Shown here in pieces: positions 40,270-60,103 of a DNA stretch of 64,000 bases (its first letter is position 1; each line of letters starts with the position of its first letter). A program made the translations under genes and the position numbers. Source of the DNA: an uncultured bacterium (GTDB lineage: Bacteria; Actinomycetota; Coriobacteriia; Coriobacteriales; Coriobacteriaceae); NCBI GenBank assembly GCA_905215385.1, contig CAJMPY010000006.1:5292-69291 (forward strand). The letters run 5' to 3'. The notes beneath the pieces are model-generated. The model did no database searches. It was not told where the DNA came from and was given only the letters and a program-made list of their open reading frames with translations.

Positions 40270-40432
40270 GGTCGCCCGCGCATAACGGAAAAGGGCCCCA
40301 ACCGAAGCCGGGGCCCTTCCCTACTCGCCGTCTGCCTCTAGCATCTGGCGCACCTCGTCGCGCCAGCGCTCGGGAACGCTCTCGAGCGTGCGCTTGCCGC
40401 TCTTCACGGCGCGGTAGTAGATCTTCGCCAAG

Positions 40433-40774
40433 TTACTCACCTCCAACGATGTCGCCGAGCTCGAGAAGGGCCGCCTGCGAGTCGGCGACCTGCTGCTGGA
40501 GCGATGCGATCTGCTCCTCCATGCTCATGCCGTCCGCCTCGTGTGCCGCCCAGACGGTGTCAAAGTCGGCCTTTGCGCCCTCGACCGTCAGCTCGCCAGT
40601 CGGGTCGGTGAAGTGCAGCTCCTCATAGGTGAACACCTTCACCTTGACGGAACCGCCCTCGCCGCCCCGCTCCTCGCGCTCGCCCTCGGCGATGCCGCGG
40701 CGCAACCAGACGTCGGTCCCCGCGATCTCGACCGCCTCGGGCCTCTCGCCCGTTCGCTCAGACTTCACAACCAT
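40433..40774 (-). CDS. hypothetical protein downstream of the DGR reverse transcriptase
   Basis: 113 aa, acidic; function unknown. Confidence 0.35.
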   Translation of the reverse strand: MVVKSERTGERPEAVEIAGTDVWLRRGIAEGEREERGGEGGSVKVKVFTYEELHFTDPTGELTVEGAKADFDTVWAAHEADGMSMEEQIASLQQQVADSQAALLELGDIVGGE

Positions 40775-40784
40775 AAATTACCTC

Positions 40785-41816
40785 CTAACCCACGGCCCTC
40801 GCCGCGTTGAATATGCACCGCTTAGCGTTCATCTGGTGCTCCATGACGGCCGTTTTCAACCAGCCCCAGTAAGAGCACACGCGCCTCGCCAAGCGCTCGG
40901 TGCGCCTGCGCATGTAGCGCGCGAACGCGCGTCGCAGTCGTTTCCAGAGCCTCTTTCGCAAGTCGACCCGGCGCCCGCGAGCGCACCAGATGCGATAGCC
41001 CGCGAAGTCGATGGGCTCGGCGCCGTTGCGCCTCACCTTCCACGGCTTCAGCGACAATCCTAGCCGCCCCAAAACGCGTGCGGCGATGGTCGCGGCTTTC
41101 CCGAGCGAGCGCTTTGAGTTGCCGAGAAAATAGCCGTCGTCGGCGTACCACACCTGGCATCCCGCGAGCCTCACGCGCTTGCCGCGCCGCTCCTTCGCCG
41201 CCTCCTCAACCGCGTGATACGCGAACGAGATCACGAACGCCGCCAACCGAAGCGACAGGTAGCTGCCGAGGATAAGGACGCCGTTCATCGTCGACAGCAG
41301 CGAATGGAGCAGGTAGAGGACCTGGCTGTTCTTGACATAGCGAGCCACCAGACCCTCCACTATCGCCGTCTGCATCGAGCCGTAGCAGTTGCGGATGTCG
41401 ACGTGCACGTGGTAGGCGAAGCGGTGAACCTCGCGCCTGAGCTTGCGCATCCCCAGCGCCGCGCCCTTGCCCTTGACGCCGCTCGACACCTGCCAGAAGC
41501 CGACCTTGGCGGCAAGGAGCGGCTCGAGTGCCCCGACGCACAGGTAGTTGCACACCTGCCGCTTGATGCTTTCGACGCTTATCTCGCGCAGCTTGCCGCT
41601 GTTCGGGTCGTGTTTCAGATAGGTTCGGATGGGGTCGAATGTCAGCGTCTCGGTCGAGAGCTCTAGCCAGATGCGGTCGACGAACGCCGTCTCGGTGCCG
41701 TATTCGTCGGCGACGCGCCAGCCGTTCTCCTTGCCGGAGTCGCTTTTCTTCCATCGGTGCAGGGCCTCGACGACGCTCTTGCGCGTGAACTCGAGGCCCT
41801 TGCAGTAGGTTTTCAT
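40785..41816 (-). CDS. DGR-type reverse transcriptase
   Basis: 343 aa; RT motif VWYADDGYFLG (YxDD); adjacent to the TR/VR repeat pair that shows adenine-specific differences. Confidence 0.8.
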   Translation of the reverse strand: MKTYCKGLEFTRKSVVEALHRWKKSDSGKENGWRVADEYGTETAFVDRIWLELSTETLTFDPIRTYLKHDPNSGKLREISVESIKRQVCNYLCVGALEPLLAAKVGFWQVSSGVKGKGAALGMRKLRREVHRFAYHVHVDIRNCYGSMQTAIVEGLVARYVKNSQVLYLLHSLLSTMNGVLILGSYLSLRLAAFVISFAYHAVEEAAKERRGKRVRLAGCQVWYADDGYFLGNSKRSLGKAATIAARVLGRLGLSLKPWKVRRNGAEPIDFAGYRIWCARGRRVDLRKRLWKRLRRAFARYMRRRTERLARRVCSYWGWLKTAVMEHQMNAKRCIFNAARAVG

Positions 41817-41973
41817 AGATCAAAGCTCTTTCTGTCTGTCATACGAGCGTTCGCCTTGCGGCTACCAGCCCGTGAGCCTTGCGGACAAATTTCACTCAAA
41901 GGAGTCAGGCTGAGCCGCGTCCCGCCAGAAAGCGGCGGGCGCGGTAGACACGGTGCGAGTAGAGATTTATAGA

Positions 41974-42086
41974 CAGATTGCCGGGAGACGAAGTTCCAAG
42001 TGGCCCTACCGGACCTGTTCCTCGAGTTCGCGTAACGAAGACCGGCCGTCGAGCCGTTCCTCAGGTTGCCGAGGAACTGAACCAGA
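41974..42086 (-). repeat. DGR template repeat (TR), 113 bp, intergenic between the target gene and the RT
   Basis: Aligns with no gaps to 42187-42299; 18 mismatches, 17 of them at TR sense-strand adenines; TR contains five AAC codons in the target frame. Confidence 0.8.
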
Positions 42087-42163
42087 AACCAGCGCCGCCC
42101 TCACCGTGAATCCCTGTTTGGAGTCAGGAGGGGGCCAGCCCCCTCTCAGGGCTACGCCCTGAT

Positions 42164-43801
42164 TCACCCCCGGCTACGGCCCGTAGCAGAAAGCCGGGAG
42201 ACGAAGTCCCAAGCGGCCCAACCGGACCAGGGCCACGAGTACGCGCAACGAAGACCGGCCGACGAGCCGCCCACCAGGTCGCCGAGGAACCGAACCAGAC
42301 GGATCGTGCCCTTGACCTTACCGCCGGAGGTGTCGAAGTAGAAGTAGTCACCGACACCGGTCGTCGCCGAGCCGCCGAGCCCCTTTCCCAAGATGAGGCC
42401 GTTGACGAACTGGATGTCGAGCATGTAGCCATCTGCCGCCGGCATGCACGCCGCCGTCGGGGTCACCCCGTCCGCCACGGCGTTCTTCTTCTCATTGCGT
42501 GTGTCGGGGTTGACCGCGATGCCGAAACCCGTGCCGTCGGAGACGAAGAGCGTATCGCCCATGAACTCCCACAGGCCCAGCCCCGTCTCGACGCCGCCGA
42601 CCTTGAACGGATGCTTGCCGTCCTTCGCCACCTGGCCGTCGCCCACGAGGGCATCGGTGTTGCCCGTGCACCACGGCGCACTCTGGATCCATGTGTTCAC
42701 GGTCGTGTCGAACGCCTTGGCGACGTCCATGAGAAGCGCCACGTTGCCGTCTGCGAGCGTCTCCTTGCCACCGACAACGGCACCGTCGAACACGTCGTAC
42801 GCCGCCGCGGCGCCTCGGTCTGGGCACTTGGTGCCCGTGTCGGTGCCGTACATCAGCGACGCGCCCACGGGGATACTCGCGGCCTGCGACGCGGTCACGA
42901 CGACGCGCGTGACGCCCGTCTCGGCGATTGCCGGGTGAATCTGCACGTTGAAGTCGGTGCAGCCCGGGAAGTCCACCTGGGAGGACTTGCACAGCGTCTT
43001 GGTCAGCTGGTGGAAGTTGACGTACCACTGGTCGTAGGCCGACATTCCCGAGTAGCCCGTGGTCGCCGTCTTGCACAGGTCGATGAGCGAGTCGTGCGAG
43101 GTCACTCGATTGGCGATCTTCGCGCCGGAGACGGAGCGCGGACGCCCGTCGGCGTCGATGCTCATCGGGTACGTCGGCGTCAGCATGTACGGTCGCAGCG
43201 TGCCGTCCGGCAGCAACGCCTTGGGGTTCGGCTGCGAGCCGCTGAATCGGCTGTCGGACCACGAGACGAGCAGGTTGCCGTTCGTCAGTACCTCGACCGC
43301 CTGCCACACGACCGGCGCGATCTCGTAGACGTTGTTGCCGCGTCCGTTGTCCACACGCGAGAAGCCGTAGTCAACGCCGTCGATTGCCTCGACCCACGGC
43401 ACGCCGTCGGCGTCGGCACCGGCGTTGGCGGACACGTGGAACCACGGGCCGCCCTCGGCGTCGAACGGGTCGACAGCCGCGCTCGTCGCCGTCGCGGGCA
43501 CGAACTCGGTGGAGGCCACGCGCTTCGCGGCGGCGCTCATGGGCTGGATGTCGGTGGGGCTGCCCGCCGGGATGAGGAACGTGTACACCAGCCCCGTCTT
43601 GTGCTTGTCCACCATCGCGGCGACGCTCTCGTTGGAGTAGCGGCCCGTCGAGGCGTCGCGCTCGAGCGACTTCTGGTCGCCCAGATTCTTCACCGCGCCG
43701 ACCAGCGCCCACACCGCCTCGTCCGATGCCAGCGGGTCCGCGTACTCGAACCCCTCGGTTGCCTGCTCGGTTGCCTGCTCGGCTGCCTGCGTATCGGCCA
43801 T
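42164..43801 (-). CDS. DGR target (variable) protein, 545 aa, with a C-terminal variable region
   Basis: VR covers codons about 500-538; C-terminal W/G-rich segment fits a CLec/Ig-like variable ligand-binding tip; its start is coupled to the stop of the upstream 301-aa ORF. Confidence 0.7.
   Translation of the reverse strand: MADTQAAEQATEQATEGFEYADPLASDEAVWALVGAVKNLGDQKSLERDASTGRYSNESVAAMVDKHKTGLVYTFLIPAGSPTDIQPMSAAAKRVASTEFVPATATSAAVDPFDAEGGPWFHVSANAGADADGVPWVEAIDGVDYGFSRVDNGRGNNVYEIAPVVWQAVEVLTNGNLLVSWSDSRFSGSQPNPKALLPDGTLRPYMLTPTYPMSIDADGRPRSVSGAKIANRVTSHDSLIDLCKTATTGYSGMSAYDQWYVNFHQLTKTLCKSSQVDFPGCTDFNVQIHPAIAETGVTRVVVTASQAASIPVGASLMYGTDTGTKCPDRGAAAAYDVFDGAVVGGKETLADGNVALLMDVAKAFDTTVNTWIQSAPWCTGNTDALVGDGQVAKDGKHPFKVGGVETGLGLWEFMGDTLFVSDGTGFGIAVNPDTRNEKKNAVADGVTPTAACMPAADGYMLDIQFVNGLILGKGLGGSATTGVGDYFYFDTSGGKVKGTIRLVRFLGDLVGGSSAGLRCAYSWPWSGWAAWDFVSRLSATGRSRG
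42187..42299 (-). repeat. DGR variable repeat (VR) at the 3' end of the target gene (encodes ...LVRFLGDLVGGSSAGLRCAYSWPWSGWAAWDFVSRLS)
   Basis: Cognate of the TR; followed within 1 nt by the palindrome GCTACGGGCCGTAGC (42173-42187) and the stop codon. Confidence 0.8.
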
Positions 43802-44707
43802 TTAGGCACCTACCTTTCGCATCTGGCAAATCTTGCCGTTTACCTTCTTGAGTCCCAGCGCCGTCACGGCAGCCGCCGAGTCGATAATCGACTGGTAGTT
43901 CAGGGCTGCCGTCTTGGCGTCCTTGAGCGCCGCCTGCGCGTCGGCGAGGGCCTTGGTCGAATCCTGCTCGCGCTTCTGCTCGGCGGTCTTGCGCCCCACC
44001 TCAGCCTCCTTGCGCTCCGTCTCGGAGGTCTTGCGCTCGGACTCGGTCTGCCCGCGCTCGGTCTCGGCGTCGGCGCGCTTTTTCTCAGCCGTTTCGACAG
44101 AAGCCTTGAGCTGCTTGAACTCGTTGTTGACCTTGTTCACGCCAGCCGCCGCGTCCGTCGCGGGCTTCTTGAGCTCCGCGATCTGCTCGGCGGTGAGGTC
44201 GCTGTATCTCAGCGCGTCGCCCTTCGGCACGCCGACGACCAGCACGTTGTTCTCCATCGTCGCCGTTGCCTCCGAGCCCGAGGCGAGCGTCGTGGCTCGT
44301 GCCCCCTTGACCTCGGCGGCGACAGCCTTGTCGCGTGCGGCCTCCGCCGCCTTCTGCGCGGCCCTGGCCTCGTCTCGCGCCGCCTCTGCGTCCTTGATGG
44401 TGCGCTGGTCGCTCGGCTCGTAGATGTACTCGGCGGGCTTGGCTCGCCTCTTTACGTCCCAGAGCGCCTCGATGCGCGTGCGTCCGCCGTATGCCTCGTC
44501 CGTGATGTAGGCCCATGCGTACACGCGCCCAGCCACCTGGAGCAGCTCGTCGGGAATCTTCGCCTTGCTGTCGGCAACCGCGACCGTGTAGCACGTCCCC
44601 GTGGTCGACTTGGCGAAATGCACCTGCTCGCAGCCGACAACCTCGACCTCGCGCCCGGTGTCCCACTGCCACAGCTCGCCGTCAAGCACCTGCAATGCCG
44701 CCATCAC
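43802..44707 (-). CDS. hypothetical coiled-coil protein between the portal and the DGR target
   Basis: 301 aa; long E/K/A-rich helical C-terminal half. Confidence 0.4.
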   Translation of the reverse strand: MMAALQVLDGELWQWDTGREVEVVGCEQVHFAKSTTGTCYTVAVADSKAKIPDELLQVAGRVYAWAYITDEAYGGRTRIEALWDVKRRAKPAEYIYEPSDQRTIKDAEAARDEARAAQKAAEAARDKAVAAEVKGARATTLASGSEATATMENNVLVVGVPKGDALRYSDLTAEQIAELKKPATDAAAGVNKVNNEFKQLKASVETAEKKRADAETERGQTESERKTSETERKEAEVGRKTAEQKREQDSTKALADAQAALKDAKTAALNYQSIIDSAAAVTALGLKKVNGKICQMRKVGA

Positions 44708-52407: not shown

Positions 52408-52884
52408 TCAGAACGGCACGTCCTCGTCGTAGAACTCGGACTGCGGGACCGCGGCGTAGGCCTGCTGGGCATTCCGCTGCGGCGCGGCCTGCGCCCGGGG
52501 CTGCACGGGCACCGTGTCCGCGAGGCTCTGCTGCGGCTGGGCCTGCGTCTGCCCCTCGCGGCGCACCATGACCTCGATCTCGTCGACGATAACCTCGAGC
52601 TTCGAGCGCTTCTGGCCGTCCTTCTCCCAGGAGCTGTAGCGCAGCTTGCCCTCGATGGCGACCTTCATCCCCTTGGCGAGGAAACGGCCAACGGCCTCGG
52701 CGCGGTTGCCGAACATCGTGCAGTCGACGAAGTTGGGGTAGTCCTCCCACTCGCCCGTTTGCGCGTTGCGGCGGCGGTCGTTTACCGCCACGCCAAAGGA
52801 CAGGACCTGCGTCCCGCCGGCGGTGGCGCGCAGCTCGGGGTCGCGGGTCAGGTTGCCGCTGATGTTCACTCGGTTGATGCTCAC
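52408..52884 (-). CDS. ssb: single-stranded DNA-binding protein
   Basis: OB-fold N-terminus MSINRVNISGNLTRDPELR, Q/P-rich linker, acidic C-terminal DEDVPF. Confidence 0.85.
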   Translation of the reverse strand: MSINRVNISGNLTRDPELRATAGGTQVLSFGVAVNDRRRNAQTGEWEDYPNFVDCTMFGNRAEAVGRFLAKGMKVAIEGKLRYSSWEKDGQKRSKLEVIVDEIEVMVRREGQTQAQPQQSLADTVPVQPRAQAAPQRNAQQAYAAVPQSEFYDEDVPF

Positions 52885-53225: not shown

Positions 53226-54212
53226 CTACATCCTCTCGACGTATCCGTGAATGCCGTTGTCGACCATGACGGCCCTCACGCGGCGCAGCTCGTCCGCCGT
53301 GGCGCACTCGATGACCACGCGGTAGCCCCTCTGCGGTGCCGAGGCCGCATCCTCGGCCGCATCCGACTCGGGGCGCGACGGGACCACCCGCACGCACCTC
53401 GGCACGCCCAAGGGCGGTTCAGGCTCCTCGACGGGCATCGGCTCGGGGTCGGGCGGCAGCGGCGCGGGCTCCGGCTCGGGCTCCGGTGCGGGCGCCGTCG
53501 CCTGCTCGTAGGTCGACACGAGCGCGGCGGCCTTGGCGACCTCCTCGCGGTGCGCGGCTACAGCCGCCGCCACTTCGCCCGAGTCCATCGGCAGCGTCCT
53601 AGTCCACCACGCCACGGCCCACGCCTTCTCGTCCTCGTCCGCGTAGTCGAGCCCGTTGACGAACTTGAACTGGTGCAGCAGCTCGCCCACGCGGCGCTCG
53701 ATGATGTTCTTGGCCTTGACCTCGCCGAAGCTCGCGTTGAGCCACTTGTCGTCGGCGATGCGCTCGTAGGGCACCAGCGGCCCCATCTCGCCCGCGAGGT
53801 CGTAGTAGTGGCCCTCGAGCGCGGCGAGGCGGCGGGCCCTGCACTCGCCGTCGTATCGGTCGATTTCGGCCTTGTACTCATCGGAGAGCGCGTCGATGGG
53901 CGCCGTGATCTCGCCGATGGTCTTGTCGAACGTCTTGAGCAGGTCGTTGTACTTCTTCTTCGCGGCCTTGCGCTGCGCCTCGATGGGCTTCTTCACGTCG
54001 TTGACCGCCGCGCGGTACTTCTTTGCCGCCTTGAAGTCCTCGTCCTTCTCGATGTGCTTGACGTCCACGTAGTCCGCCAGCTTCTCGTCCACGTTCTTCT
54101 TGAGCTTTGCCAGCTTGTCCTCGAGCGTGTCGTCGATGGCGAGCGACGCCACCAGCGTGTCGAAGTCCTCCTCGAGCGGCACGGCCTCGACCGCCAAAAC
54201 CTCGTCTGCCAT
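53226..54212 (-). CDS. DUF1351-like phage protein (partner of RecT in many phages)
   Basis: 328 aa, K/E-rich N-terminal half, proline-rich linker; adjacent to recT. Confidence 0.4.
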   Translation of the reverse strand: MADEVLAVEAVPLEEDFDTLVASLAIDDTLEDKLAKLKKNVDEKLADYVDVKHIEKDEDFKAAKKYRAAVNDVKKPIEAQRKAAKKKYNDLLKTFDKTIGEITAPIDALSDEYKAEIDRYDGECRARRLAALEGHYYDLAGEMGPLVPYERIADDKWLNASFGEVKAKNIIERRVGELLHQFKFVNGLDYADEDEKAWAVAWWTRTLPMDSGEVAAAVAAHREEVAKAAALVSTYEQATAPAPEPEPEPAPLPPDPEPMPVEEPEPPLGVPRCVRVVPSRPESDAAEDAASAPQRGYRVVIECATADELRRVRAVMVDNGIHGYVERM

Positions 54213-55111
54213 TAGAAGCCTCCCAGAAGGTCGTCGTCGGTCGCGTACTCGGCGGGCGCGGGCTCATAGACGAGCGCGGGCTCCGGCTCGGGGGCGGCGG
54301 GCTCGGGCTGCGCCTTGCGGGCCGCGATCTCCTCCTCCATCCACGAGGCCGCGCGGCGCGCCTGCATGAGCGTCATGTCGTGCATGGAGCCCGACGTGCA
54401 GCCCACGGCGGCGCAGATGGCAGCCATGGCCCCGGCGCTGTCGAGCCCAGTCGCCGCCATGAACGGCTTGAACAGCTCGCGCACGGGCTGCAGGTCGGCC
54501 ACGGGCTCGACGCTCTCGGCCTCGACGGTCTGAGAACCTGCGCGCATGTCGCGCTCGACCTTCTGGTCCATCTCCTCGCCCGTGTACATCCCGCCGAACT
54601 CGTCGGGGTAGGCAAGGCGCCACGCGCCGGCCTTGGCGCACTTCTCGATCATGACGCCCGGCATCTTCGCCCAGTTGCTCTTGCCGGTGCTGTAGTCGCT
54701 AAGCGCCAGCTCCACGTAGGCCGGCTCCTTGCCGTCCTTGAACTGCACCTCGGCCCAGCCGCCGAGCAGCTGCTCGCCCACCTGCTTGTAGACGGCGCTG
54801 CCGCGCTTCTTGACGATCTGCCCCTCGCGCATCACCACGACGCCGCTCTTGATGCCGCCGTAGCTCTCCTGGCGGTTGGCGCGGCGGTTGAAGACCTGAT
54901 AGCTAGTGATGATGCTCGCCGGGGCGTCCCTGTACTTCACCAGGTAGACCTCCTTGGTGAAGGGGTTCAGGTGCTGGCGGTTGCACAGCTCGATGCACAG
55001 CGCCAGCTCGCTTTCGGTCGCGTTCGGGCACAGGCGCTCGCGAATGTCCTGCGAGGTGAACTTGACGGGCATGCCCGCATCGTCCTTGTACTCGATGATC
55101 CCGTTACTCAT
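54212..55111 (-). CDS. recT: RecT-family single-strand annealing recombinase
   Basis: 299 aa; RecT-like core (ITSYQVFNRRANRQESYGGIKSGVVV...). Confidence 0.75.
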   Translation of the reverse strand: MSNGIIEYKDDAGMPVKFTSQDIRERLCPNATESELALCIELCNRQHLNPFTKEVYLVKYRDAPASIITSYQVFNRRANRQESYGGIKSGVVVMREGQIVKKRGSAVYKQVGEQLLGGWAEVQFKDGKEPAYVELALSDYSTGKSNWAKMPGVMIEKCAKAGAWRLAYPDEFGGMYTGEEMDQKVERDMRAGSQTVEAESVEPVADLQPVRELFKPFMAATGLDSAGAMAAICAAVGCTSGSMHDMTLMQARRAASWMEEEIAARKAQPEPAAPEPEPALVYEPAPAEYATDDDLLGGF

Positions 55112-58813: not shown

Positions 58814-60103
58814 ATGGCTTTCAGGGACATGTTCAAGGCGACCGAGTACAAGCAGCGGGTAGAGGAGCTCGAGTCCATGCTCACGCCGGAGATGGCGGAC
58901 GCGGATAGGCTCAGGCGCGAGGCCGAGGACCTCAGGAAGAAAATCGAGGAGGAGAAGGCCTCGCTCGAGAAGCTGGAGAAGCAGAACGGCAAACTGGATG
59001 CCATCGTCAAGGAAAAGGAGTCCAAGTCGCGCGTCCTCGATGACGAGCTGCTGGTCGAGGAGTTCGGCCTGTACCGCCCACGCTTCGACTTCGCCGACTC
59101 GACTCACTACAAGGACGCCCTCGACCGATGCCGCAGGAAACAGAAGGAGGCCGTCAAGAGCTTCAGCAAGGCCGCGGACAAGACGTCCTGGACGGTTAAC
59201 GGCAGCGCCTCGAAGGGCAAGGCGATGGTCCGCGAAATCTCGAAGCTGCTCATGATGGCGTACAACGGCGAGTGCGACGAAATCGTGCGCAAAGTCAAGG
59301 CGACCAACGTCGAGCGCTCGCTCGAGAGAATCGAGAAGTCGGCCGCAGCCATCAACCGCAACGGCAAGACCCTCGGCATATCCATCCCCGCCGCATACGT
59401 CCTCCTCAAGCAGGAGGAGGTCCAGCTGGCCTTCGAGTTCGCACAGGAGAAAGAGGAGGAGAAGGAGGCGCTGCGCGAGGCCCGCGAGCAGGAGCGCGAG
59501 GCCCGGAAGCTCGAGCGCGAGATAGCGGCCGAGCGCAAGAAGCTCGAGAAGGAGCGCTCCCAGTACCTCAAGGCGTACAAGGACATCTCGGCACGCCTGA
59601 AGGATGCCGGCGACGACGAGCGCGCCGATCTCGAGGAGAAGGCCGCGGAGCTCAAGGCGAAGCTCGACGACGTGGACAGGGCAGTGTCGGATGTCGATTA
59701 CCGAGAGGCGAACCAGAAGGCAGGCTTCGTATACGTAATCTCAAACATCGGCTCATTCGGTGAGGGCGTCTACAAGATCGGGATGACGAGGCGCCTTGAG
59801 CCGATGGACCGCATCCGCGAGCTCGGAGACGCGTCCGTCCCGTTCAATTTCGACGTGCACGCGCTCATCTTCTGCGATGACGCCCCGAAGCTCGAGGCGG
59901 CGCTGCACCGGGCCTTCGAGGACAGGAAGGTGAACATAGTCAACCAGCGCAGGGAGTTCTTCCGCGTGTCGCTCGATGAGATCGAGGAGGTCGTCAAGGC
60001 GAACTACGACAAGACCGTCGAGTTCCACAGCGTGCCCGACGCCGAACAGTACCGGACGAGCGAGAAGTTGCGCGAGAGGGGCATTTTCCACCCGCTCGCC
60101 TAA
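58814..60103 (+). CDS. DUF4041 plus T5orf172-domain protein (defence/abortive-infection-associated family) in the lysogeny module
   Basis: Long N-terminal coiled coil; C-terminal GFVYVISNIGSFGEGVYKIGMTRRLEPMDRIRELGDASVPFNFDVHALIF matches the T5orf172/GIY-YIG-like signature. Confidence 0.65.
   Translation: MAFRDMFKATEYKQRVEELESMLTPEMADADRLRREAEDLRKKIEEEKASLEKLEKQNGKLDAIVKEKESKSRVLDDELLVEEFGLYRPRFDFADSTHYKDALDRCRRKQKEAVKSFSKAADKTSWTVNGSASKGKAMVREISKLLMMAYNGECDEIVRKVKATNVERSLERIEKSAAAINRNGKTLGISIPAAYVLLKQEEVQLAFEFAQEKEEEKEALREAREQEREARKLEREIAAERKKLEKERSQYLKAYKDISARLKDAGDDERADLEEKAAELKAKLDDVDRAVSDVDYREANQKAGFVYVISNIGSFGEGVYKIGMTRRLEPMDRIRELGDASVPFNFDVHALIFCDDAPKLEAALHRAFEDRKVNIVNQRREFFRVSLDEIEEVVKANYDKTVEFHSVPDAEQYRTSEKLRERGIFHPLA

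Follow-up and report, generated by a model that had tools for sequence, protein, structure and literature searches.

A 64,000-nucleotide stretch of DNA from the gut actinobacterium Collinsella (contig CAJMPY010000006.1 of assembly GCA_905215385.1, positions 5,292–69,291; here termed the window) very probably carries a functional diversity-generating retroelement (DGR), housed in a temperate prophage of the siphovirus type. The element is a five-part cassette on the minus strand, comprising an upstream protein (200–300 residues among the relatives), a target gene that ends in a variable repeat (VR), a non-coding template repeat (TR), a reverse transcriptase (RT) and a small open reading frame (ORF). 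It falls within the operational definition of a DGR and has two variant features: no Avd protein was detected, and the last residue of the RT signature is altered. Given how extremely common DGRs are in gut phages, and how well their outline is understood, finding one here is unsurprising. An earlier note, made from the letters of the window, had proposed a prophage-borne DGR on the paradigm of Bordetella phage BPP-1. Here, we set out the evidence for its activity, the points at which it departs from that paradigm and the readings that compete with it.

The core of the element is a pair of repeats. A repeat search of the region returned a single 113-nucleotide direct repeat, formed by the TR (41974–42086, minus strand) and the VR (42187–42299, minus strand), which align without gaps at 84% identity and whose likeness ends abruptly at both borders. 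The last ~45 codons of the target ORF (42164–43801, minus strand) contain the VR in frame, at codons ~502–538 of 545. Read on the minus (sense) strand, the two repeats differ at 18 positions. Seventeen of these fall on the 20 adenines of the TR (A>G at eight, A>T at seven and A>C at two), and the sole mismatch elsewhere is G>T (TR 42060, VR 42273); the hypergeometric probability of at least 17 of 18 mismatches landing on the 20 adenines is 3.1e-16. The alignment in the earlier note, its count of substituted adenines, the position of the VR at the end of the 545-residue gene and both peptide translations are reproduced exactly, and the adenine enrichment holds on recounting by TR base. In the frame of the VR, the TR contains five AAC codons, and its 18 mutable adenines all occupy the first or second codon position. 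Changing TR adenines never yields a stop codon, and the potential repertoire comprises 6.9e10 DNA variants and 1.6e10 protein variants.

The same pattern recurs across a population of elements. About 90 near-identical copies were gathered from contigs encoding the exact RT protein sequence, from a pattern scan of IMG/VR and from a genome scan seeded with an RT alignment; clusters of the RT at 97–99% identity contain thousands of member sequences. The IMG/VR and metagenome set holds 28 different VRs among 30 TR/VR pairs, with 449 of 456 mismatches at TR adenines and 7 elsewhere. In the Collinsella genome set, each of the 61 pairs has a distinct VR (879 mismatches at adenines, 72 at other bases), and because the RT, not the repeat, was the means of recruitment, the set is unbiased with respect to the repeat. 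Of the 72, 23 come from an indel-shifted alignment at one locus (L042), 24 from a three-nucleotide offset of the repeat start in a clade at 70% identity (L099–L108), and a further 19 from three loci with an altered TR copy (L106, L041 and L085). Eight divergent lineages, whose RTs are 40–71% identical to that of the window, each possess an A-specific TR/VR pair of their own.

Pairwise diversity by site class was calculated for 65 distinct near-identical elements, anchored on the TR flank. At the 18 TR-adenine sites of the VR it is 0.627. The remaining 93 VR sites give 0.024, the target gene outside the VR 0.033, third codon positions upstream 0.073 and the intergenic spacers 0.008 (Mann–Whitney p 4e-15). 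The earlier note had looked to heterogeneity of the VR as a check; among near-identical elements across genomes such heterogeneity is found, mainly at the TR-adenine sites and with little variation elsewhere. Private TR polymorphisms at non-A sites (GACGG versus GAATG) reappear in the cognate VR; the VRs thus copy the peculiarities of their own TR, which gives the direction of information flow as TR to VR. Among the copies A>T is the commonest substitution, followed by A>G and then A>C, an order that agrees with the bias of the Bordetella enzyme bRT, for which dATP is the nucleotide most often misincorporated (PMC7826257).

One part of the earlier account is revised by the population data. All 17 adenine changes had been attributed to mutagenesis; 15 of them, at the 18 mutable adenines, can stay under that heading, and the last two (A>T at TR 41978–41979, VR 42191–42192) are constant in all ~90 copies and therefore represent a fixed difference between TR and VR. 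These two bases belong to the 3′ end of the VR (42187–42206, minus strand), where a GC-rich 14-mer, CTTCGTCTCCCGGC, is followed by TTTCTG, and by AATCTG in the TR. This pattern, the 14-mer and then TT (VR) or AA (TR), is invariant across the ~90 TR/VR pairs. The second T is the synonymous third position of a leucine codon and yet never varies, so this site escapes mutagenesis. Variable adenines end 5′ of the GC-rich block, and comparable fixed differences stand directly before TCTG in all eight divergent lineages. The arrangement resembles the directional marker of BPP-1, the initiation of mutagenic homing sequence and its TR counterpart (IMH and IMH*), and by analogy may play the same role.

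Some copies of the TR are themselves altered. Among elements, variability at the TR adenine sites is about five times that at other TR sites (0.105 versus 0.019). At three loci (L012, L024 and L030) a portion of the 'TR' matches the cognate VR exactly, A>N changes included; in L106 the TR and VR copies look partly swapped, and altered TR copies are found also in L041 and L085. Gene conversion from VR to TR, leakage of homing into the TR and chimeric assembly are all possible sources; if real, such alteration erodes the adenines of the template. A separate observation concerns an exact 213-bp deletion in seven contigs from different assemblers (L001, L002, L017, L018, L074, L077 and L088). It falls within 41974–42299 of the window and fuses the 5′ flank of the VR to the 3′ flank of the TR, leaving one hybrid copy with 2–16 changes at A sites and a target ORF that extends to the RT start (587 residues). 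Either the repeat was collapsed during assembly of samples whose VRs were heterogeneous, or there was a genuine recombination between VR and TR that would inactivate the element.

The RT is encoded 157 nucleotides after the TR (40785–41816, minus strand; 343 residues, isoelectric point (pI) 10.4), and its YADD box stands in the context VWYADDGYF. Its identification in the earlier note as an RT is borne out by a match to PHROG 1423, 'reverse transcriptase' (E 1.6e-31), and by its closest solved relative, 8ub7_A, a 328-residue 'Reverse transcriptase' that aligns with residues 19–318 (E 2.5e-7). The aligned 8ub7 sequence carries IGSLTSQ, and from this signature we take the structure to be bRT; the equivalents of Arg74 and Ile181 of bRT are conserved, as R77 and L183 in the window. 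The enzyme is under purifying selection, with a ratio of non-synonymous to synonymous polymorphism (pN/pS) of 0.10, and among 77 distinct full-length copies 73 are intact.

The repeats and the RT together bear on a reading that dispenses with retrohoming, in which the VR varies through ordinary diversifying selection or recombination between alleles, and neither the second repeat nor the neighbouring RT (of group II intron, retron or defence type) has anything to do with that variation. Receptor-binding tips are commonly hypervariable, the RT is weak against the Pfam RVT_1 profile, and its top NCBIfam match is a group II intron RT model. That model (TIGR04416), however, scores 46 bits against a cut-off of 300, the NCBIfam profile of retron St85 matches the RT at E 0.06 only, and the PADLOC profiles for retrons, defence-associated RTs (DRT) and abortive infection (Abi) reach at most 32 bits. 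Within 40300–44000, which takes in the TR and spacer RNA, neither a group II intron nor any other Rfam family matches at E up to 1. A group II intron, retron or DRT/Abi identity was accordingly rejected, no family profile being above threshold and no cognate Rfam RNA present, and the best solved relative is the presumed bRT. The pattern of variation is likewise contrary to ordinary selection, since it is limited to TR-adenine positions at codon positions 1 and 2, synonymous and non-adenine VR sites show the same conservation as the remainder of the gene, and VRs follow the polymorphisms of their own TR. The data already contradict this explanation, and we give it almost no credence.

The sequence around the TR is conserved as structure in alignments of 9–11 lineages. 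The elements involved are a block upstream of the TR (42102–42116, minus strand), with CAGG at 42113–42116 and TCACGGTG at 42102–42109, and the spacer RNA from the TR to the RT (41817–41973, minus strand). RNAalifold, applied to 11 lineages, pairs 42113–42116 with 41906–41909 (helix 1) and 42102–42109 with 41948–41955 (helix 2), so that the upstream block provides the 5′ strands of two long-range helices, in which 5 of 12 pairs show compensatory changes. A further helix joins the 3′ end of the TR, TCTGTCT (41971–41977), to the box AGACAGA (41831–41837), the invariant CAGA box, which is situated ~140 nucleotides after the TR and ~20 nucleotides before the RT start codon; it is present in 10 of the 11 lineages, with the compensatory variants GT/AC, GG/CC, GA/TC, AT/AT and TC/GA. 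The spacer also contains a stem-loop (41915–41943), a hairpin plus GAAA (41888–41905) and a helix (41843–41873), and its three internal stem-loops covary too. Overall, the model has 38 pairs, 20 of them with compensatory changes; 89.7% of cells are paired, where shuffles give 76.1%, and covariation scores 0.391, against 0.145 for shuffles (0 of 500 reach it) and at most 0.099 when the partners are slid.

In the Bordetella ribonucleoprotein, a template:primer duplex between TR and spacer positions the priming adenosine, and a 'cPRT Stop' duplex between upstream sequence and spacer ends synthesis (bioRxiv 10.1101/2023.10.23.563531); the conservation survey published with that work was limited to DGRs with Avd. 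Both kinds of long-range pairing have counterparts here, reordered along the spacer. Further upstream, the target stop codon is followed by two tandem hairpins (42130–42161, minus strand): HP1, CAGGGC-GTA-GCCCTG (42147–42161), and HP2, GGGGGC-TG-GCCCCC (42130–42143). Both recur in nine divergent lineages; the stem of HP1 is kept while its sequence shifts (CATGGC..GCCATG, TTGACGC..GCGTCAA), and HP2 is nearly invariant. They could constitute a terminator or a structure that enhances homing.

From these parts a cycle of mutagenic homing can be proposed. The cassette would be transcribed from the minus strand, and RNA spanning the TR and its flanks would fold, with the sequence upstream of the TR pairing with the spacer and the 3′ end of the TR pairing with the AGACAGA box before the RT start codon. 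Synthesis of complementary DNA (cDNA) would begin at this TCTGTCT/AGACAGA duplex, probably primed in cis from the terminal adenosine of CAGA, as the analogy with bRT suggests. Copying of the TR by the RT would be faithful at all bases but adenines, opposite which any nucleotide may enter, and the cDNA would take the place of the VR at the end of the target (its last ~40 codons). If the 3′ limit of transfer lies within the GC-rich block, the fixed TT/AA difference would keep the flow one-way. The outcome would be the re-randomisation of 13 codons on the ligand-binding face of a C-type lectin domain, with as many as 1.6e10 variants and no stop codon in any of them.

Several observations weigh against a functional DGR of this kind. 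The order of the spacer elements differs from that of Bordetella, with the Stop-like strands first and the primer-like strand at the 3′ end of the spacer, which makes the priming analogy weaker than the evidence for base-pairing itself. A profile search of 40785–41816 covers the whole of RVT_1 but falls below the gathering score (24.3 versus 29.6 bits, E 2.9e-5). Avd is essential in Bordetella BPP-1, and no Pfam, NCBIfam or PDB match to it came from the cassette, from 20 further small prophage ORFs or from the Pfam-annotated neighbourhoods of relatives. Avd is present in 74% of DGRs and absent from 26%, for which Wu et al. 2018 inferred an Avd-independent mechanism (PMC5758913); since it is not universal, its lack does not exclude membership, and the element counts among the avd-less DGRs. 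The signature motif of DGR RTs is [I/V/L]GxxxSQ (PMC7826257), and motif 4 reads LGSYLSL in the window and (I/L)GS(Y/F)(L/F)S(L/M) across the whole clade, with L or M in place of the final Q. Agreement extends over the first six positions, among them the first residue, which is functionally implicated; the motif is a signature drawn from consensus, not the operational definition of a DGR, and the TR/VR pairs of the clade are A-specific regardless.

The remaining points concern activity in the present. The evidence for it comes from comparisons between genomes and samples, and 4 of the 77 RT copies (L109, L078, L066 and L092) contain stops or a frameshift with their TR/VR pairs still in place, being either decaying copies or sequencing errors. 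Such copies speak for a fossil DGR, formerly active and no longer retrohoming in this lysogen, in which the VR differences are inherited relics. So does the loss of adenines from some TR copies, and one locus (L006) has a VR identical to that of the window, G>T included, from which it follows that a VR can persist for some time. In the window, however, the RT, the TR with its 20 adenines, the spacer and the target are all intact, and the RT is under the purifying selection noted above. The VRs differ in every one of the 61 genome copies, against a divergence of only a few percent in the flanking DNA, and diversity at the A sites (0.63) is near its maximum of 0.75. Such numbers require many independent and recent homing events in the lineage, and we regard a fossil as improbable and a functional DGR as much the better account.

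The absence of a recognisable Avd draws attention to the small ORF that follows the RT (40433–40774, minus strand; 113 residues, pI 4.35), whose start lies 10 nucleotides after the RT stop. It trails the RT at 0–170 nucleotides, or overlaps it, in every context examined (between portal and MuF, among tail and lysis genes, and others). A set of 1.84e9 proteins contains 142 representatives of the family, which is found in Coriobacteriia and other gut phages; in all five distant relatives sampled, the gene stands directly after an RT of the same clade. It is under purifying selection (pN/pS 0.17). Most members have 105–135 residues, of which the N-terminal ~85 are conserved and the C-terminus is variable. 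The predicted structure is a beta sheet plus helices and not a helical bundle, unlike Avd, and no structural relative was found. In one relative (L131:5001–5711) the N-terminal ~85 residues are fused to a CBM_5_12 carbohydrate-binding module, giving a protein of 236 residues whose gene overlaps the RT stop codon, and other members carry differing C-terminal extensions; these features argue for a surface or fibre-associated role.

One proposal is that the small acidic protein, translationally coupled to the RT, is a dedicated accessory that binds the basic RT and/or the RNA in the place of Avd. The linkage to the RT, the five adjoining distant members, the purifying selection and the failure to detect Avd in cassette or prophage all speak for it, as do the opposite charges of the two proteins (pI 10.4 and 4.35). 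A precedent exists in CH1, an accessory gene of 160–169 residues and pI ~4.7 that is confined to avd-less DGRs, in Architecture E of Bacteroides lineage 3A (PMC5758913). Compared by description only, CH1 and the small ORF are both acidic and both found in avd-less DGRs, and they differ in size and host (160–169 residues in Bacteroides, 113 in Collinsella). Small-ORF members of 161–166 residues were considered as CH1 and set aside, being metagenomic proteins with C-terminal extensions or gene-call artefacts that have no tie to it. Against the proposal, the fold is unlike Avd, a conserved N-terminus with a variable C-terminus is typical of virion-surface or fibre-associated proteins, and co-inheritance with the whole target–TR–RT cassette would give the same linkage with no role in reverse transcription. 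The protein may be an RT cofactor or, alternatively, a fibre-associated or virion protein co-inherited with the cassette, and a dedicated substitute for Avd is a tentative idea that we think somewhat unlikely.

The target (545 residues, pI 4.7) was a protein of open identity in the earlier note, a description that can now be narrowed. Its predicted structure ends in a C-type lectin fold carrying the VR, as expected of the variable domain of a DGR; the best match is TaqVP, the DGR variable protein of Thermus aquaticus (PDB 5vf4), followed by Mtd, TvpA and C-type lectin folds of the FGE type. By sequence, comparison of the target with PDB gave chance matches only. Distant homologues at 35–46% identity are longer, with BppU_N or collagen repeats preceding the region that aligns with target residues 49–542; one fused homologue of 848 residues (P0139) consists of BppU_N, a coiled coil and then this region. 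BppU_N is a baseplate attachment domain. From the structural model and the fused homologues, the variable protein is identified as a C-type lectin-fold module of the tail-fibre or receptor-binding type. Near the 5′ end of the gene (43750–43800, minus strand) lies a 12-nucleotide tandem repeat, CCTGCTCGGTTG-like and in about three copies, which encodes AEQATEQATE; homologues differ in length at this region (541 versus 545 residues).

The gene before the target (43802–44707, minus strand) encodes a protein of 301 residues in which a coiled coil lies between an N-terminal domain and a conserved segment of ~55 residues at the C-terminus. It accompanies the target across different genomic contexts, with a homologue 58% identical in L123; in L110 and L113 conservation is restricted to the C-terminal ~55 residues (45%). 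BLASTP against the fused homologues gives a weak match in the coiled coil (E 0.002), and a sub-threshold match to BppU_N (E 0.0023) occurs in the L110 counterpart alone. The domain at the anchoring end differs between cassettes of the head module (the window and L123) and of the tail module (L110). The 301-residue protein is a candidate anchor or stalk partner of the variable protein and may correspond to the BppU_N and coiled-coil portion of the fused homologues; the most economical reading is a two-gene fibre, in which such an anchor would bear a distal, DGR-diversified C-type lectin head.

The setting of the cassette is as the earlier note had it, a prophage. Its genes include those for terminase, an SPP1-type portal, MuF, scaffold, a P22-type coat, tape measure, tail proteins, amidase, RecT and single-stranded DNA-binding protein (SSB), and gene content confirms a temperate siphovirus-type carrier. 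Collinsella (Coriobacteriaceae) is identified as the host by ~70 species-level genomes that hold the element with RTs at 96–99% identity, among them the complete genome NZ_AP031421.1 and cultured strains. Copies of the Collinsella type, or a relative at 46% identity, were also seen under other bin names (L087, L093 and L113–L115; Treponemataceae, 'Firmicutes bacterium AF25-13AC', Acutalibacteraceae and 'bacterium'); for the 96–97% identical copies L087 and L093 the names most likely reflect a binning error and not host range. In the window, the cassette is inserted in the head module, between the portal and MuF genes, and the same site is occupied in L123, where RT identity is 40%. In other relatives it sits among tail and lysis genes (L110, L120 and L131) or elsewhere (L117), and by this comparison of gene neighbourhoods the five-part unit acts like a mobile module. 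No match to the cassette was found by megablast among 50,697 GenBank phage records, and tblastn of RT and target found only relatives below 30% identity, in unannotated human-faecal 'Bacteriophage sp.' records, crAss-like phages and Lactobacillus phage LBR48; there is no close isolated phage on record.

Two neighbouring features deserve mention. The prophage encodes a RecT-family single-strand annealing protein (54212–55111), a DUF1351 protein (53226–54212) and SSB (52408–52884), all on the minus strand. CspRecT, a RecT from a Collinsella species, integrates DGR cDNA in engineered Escherichia coli systems (bioRxiv 10.64898/2026.07.21.739853). The phage RecT may have a role in natural retrohoming; equally, its presence may be a coincidence, RecT being common in temperate phages. 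Just past the early genes of the prophage and on the opposite strand (58814–60103, plus strand), a 429-residue protein with DUF4041 and T5orf172/MUG113 (GIY-YIG-like) domains has no evident link to the DGR.

Comparison with known systems shows how far the BPP-1 model extends. The mtd–avd–TR–brt cassette of that phage and the one described here are both phage-borne, with target (and VR), TR and RT in this order on one strand; they share A-specific substitution from TR to VR, template codons rich in AAC, an RT homologous to 8ub7, a GC-rich block with a fixed difference at the 3′ end of the repeats, and pairing of the spacer both with the 3′ end of the TR and with sequence upstream of the TR. The earlier appeal to BPP-1 therefore stands for the A-specific homing signature. 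It does not stand for the architecture of the cassette, from which Avd is missing, and on that account the element departs from the paradigm. Other differences are motif 4, which ends in L here and Q there; the placing of the primer-like CAGA strand at the 3′ end of the spacer, after Stop-like strands; the small acidic ORF after the RT; the location in the head module between portal and MuF; and a Gram-positive actinobacterial host.

Other known systems offer parallels too. The avd-less DGRs of Wu et al. 2018 share the core order target–TR–RT, their Architecture A1 (PMC5758913). DGRs in prophages of Eggerthella lenta act on a presumed receptor-binding gene, with activity shown experimentally for DSM2243phi4 (PMC8778435). 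They resemble the present element in being prophage-borne in the same host class (Coriobacteriia) and the same niche, and differ, compared by description only, in having an avd-like gene between mtd and TR (PMC8778435). No description of a Collinsella DGR was found in the literature searched; large catalogues based on IMG very likely already list these loci without comment.

Taken at their widest, the observations might fit a single account, in which an Avd-independent lineage of DGRs inhabits gut Coriobacteriia and related phages and this cassette is its best-populated example. The small acidic protein would replace Avd, the RNA would be rearranged with Stop-like duplexes first and the CAGA duplex last, and the RecT and SSB of the prophage may anneal cDNA into the VR. 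This joint account is speculative, and we think it unlikely in its entirety. If true, it would provide a compact five-part system, in cultured Collinsella, for the study of Avd-free DGR function and cDNA integration.

The value of the element is of a practical kind. To our knowledge, the mechanism of the quarter of DGRs that lack Avd, to which this one belongs, has never been characterised, and the RNA model and the RT-linked small protein are testable candidates for Avd-less priming of reverse transcription; compact DGRs independent of Avd would also interest those who build DGR-based tools for directed evolution. For the organism itself, an under-studied and disease-associated gut actinobacterium in which the prophage is abundant, some 70 Collinsella genomes, each copy with a different VR, make up a natural replicate series for receptor-binding diversification.

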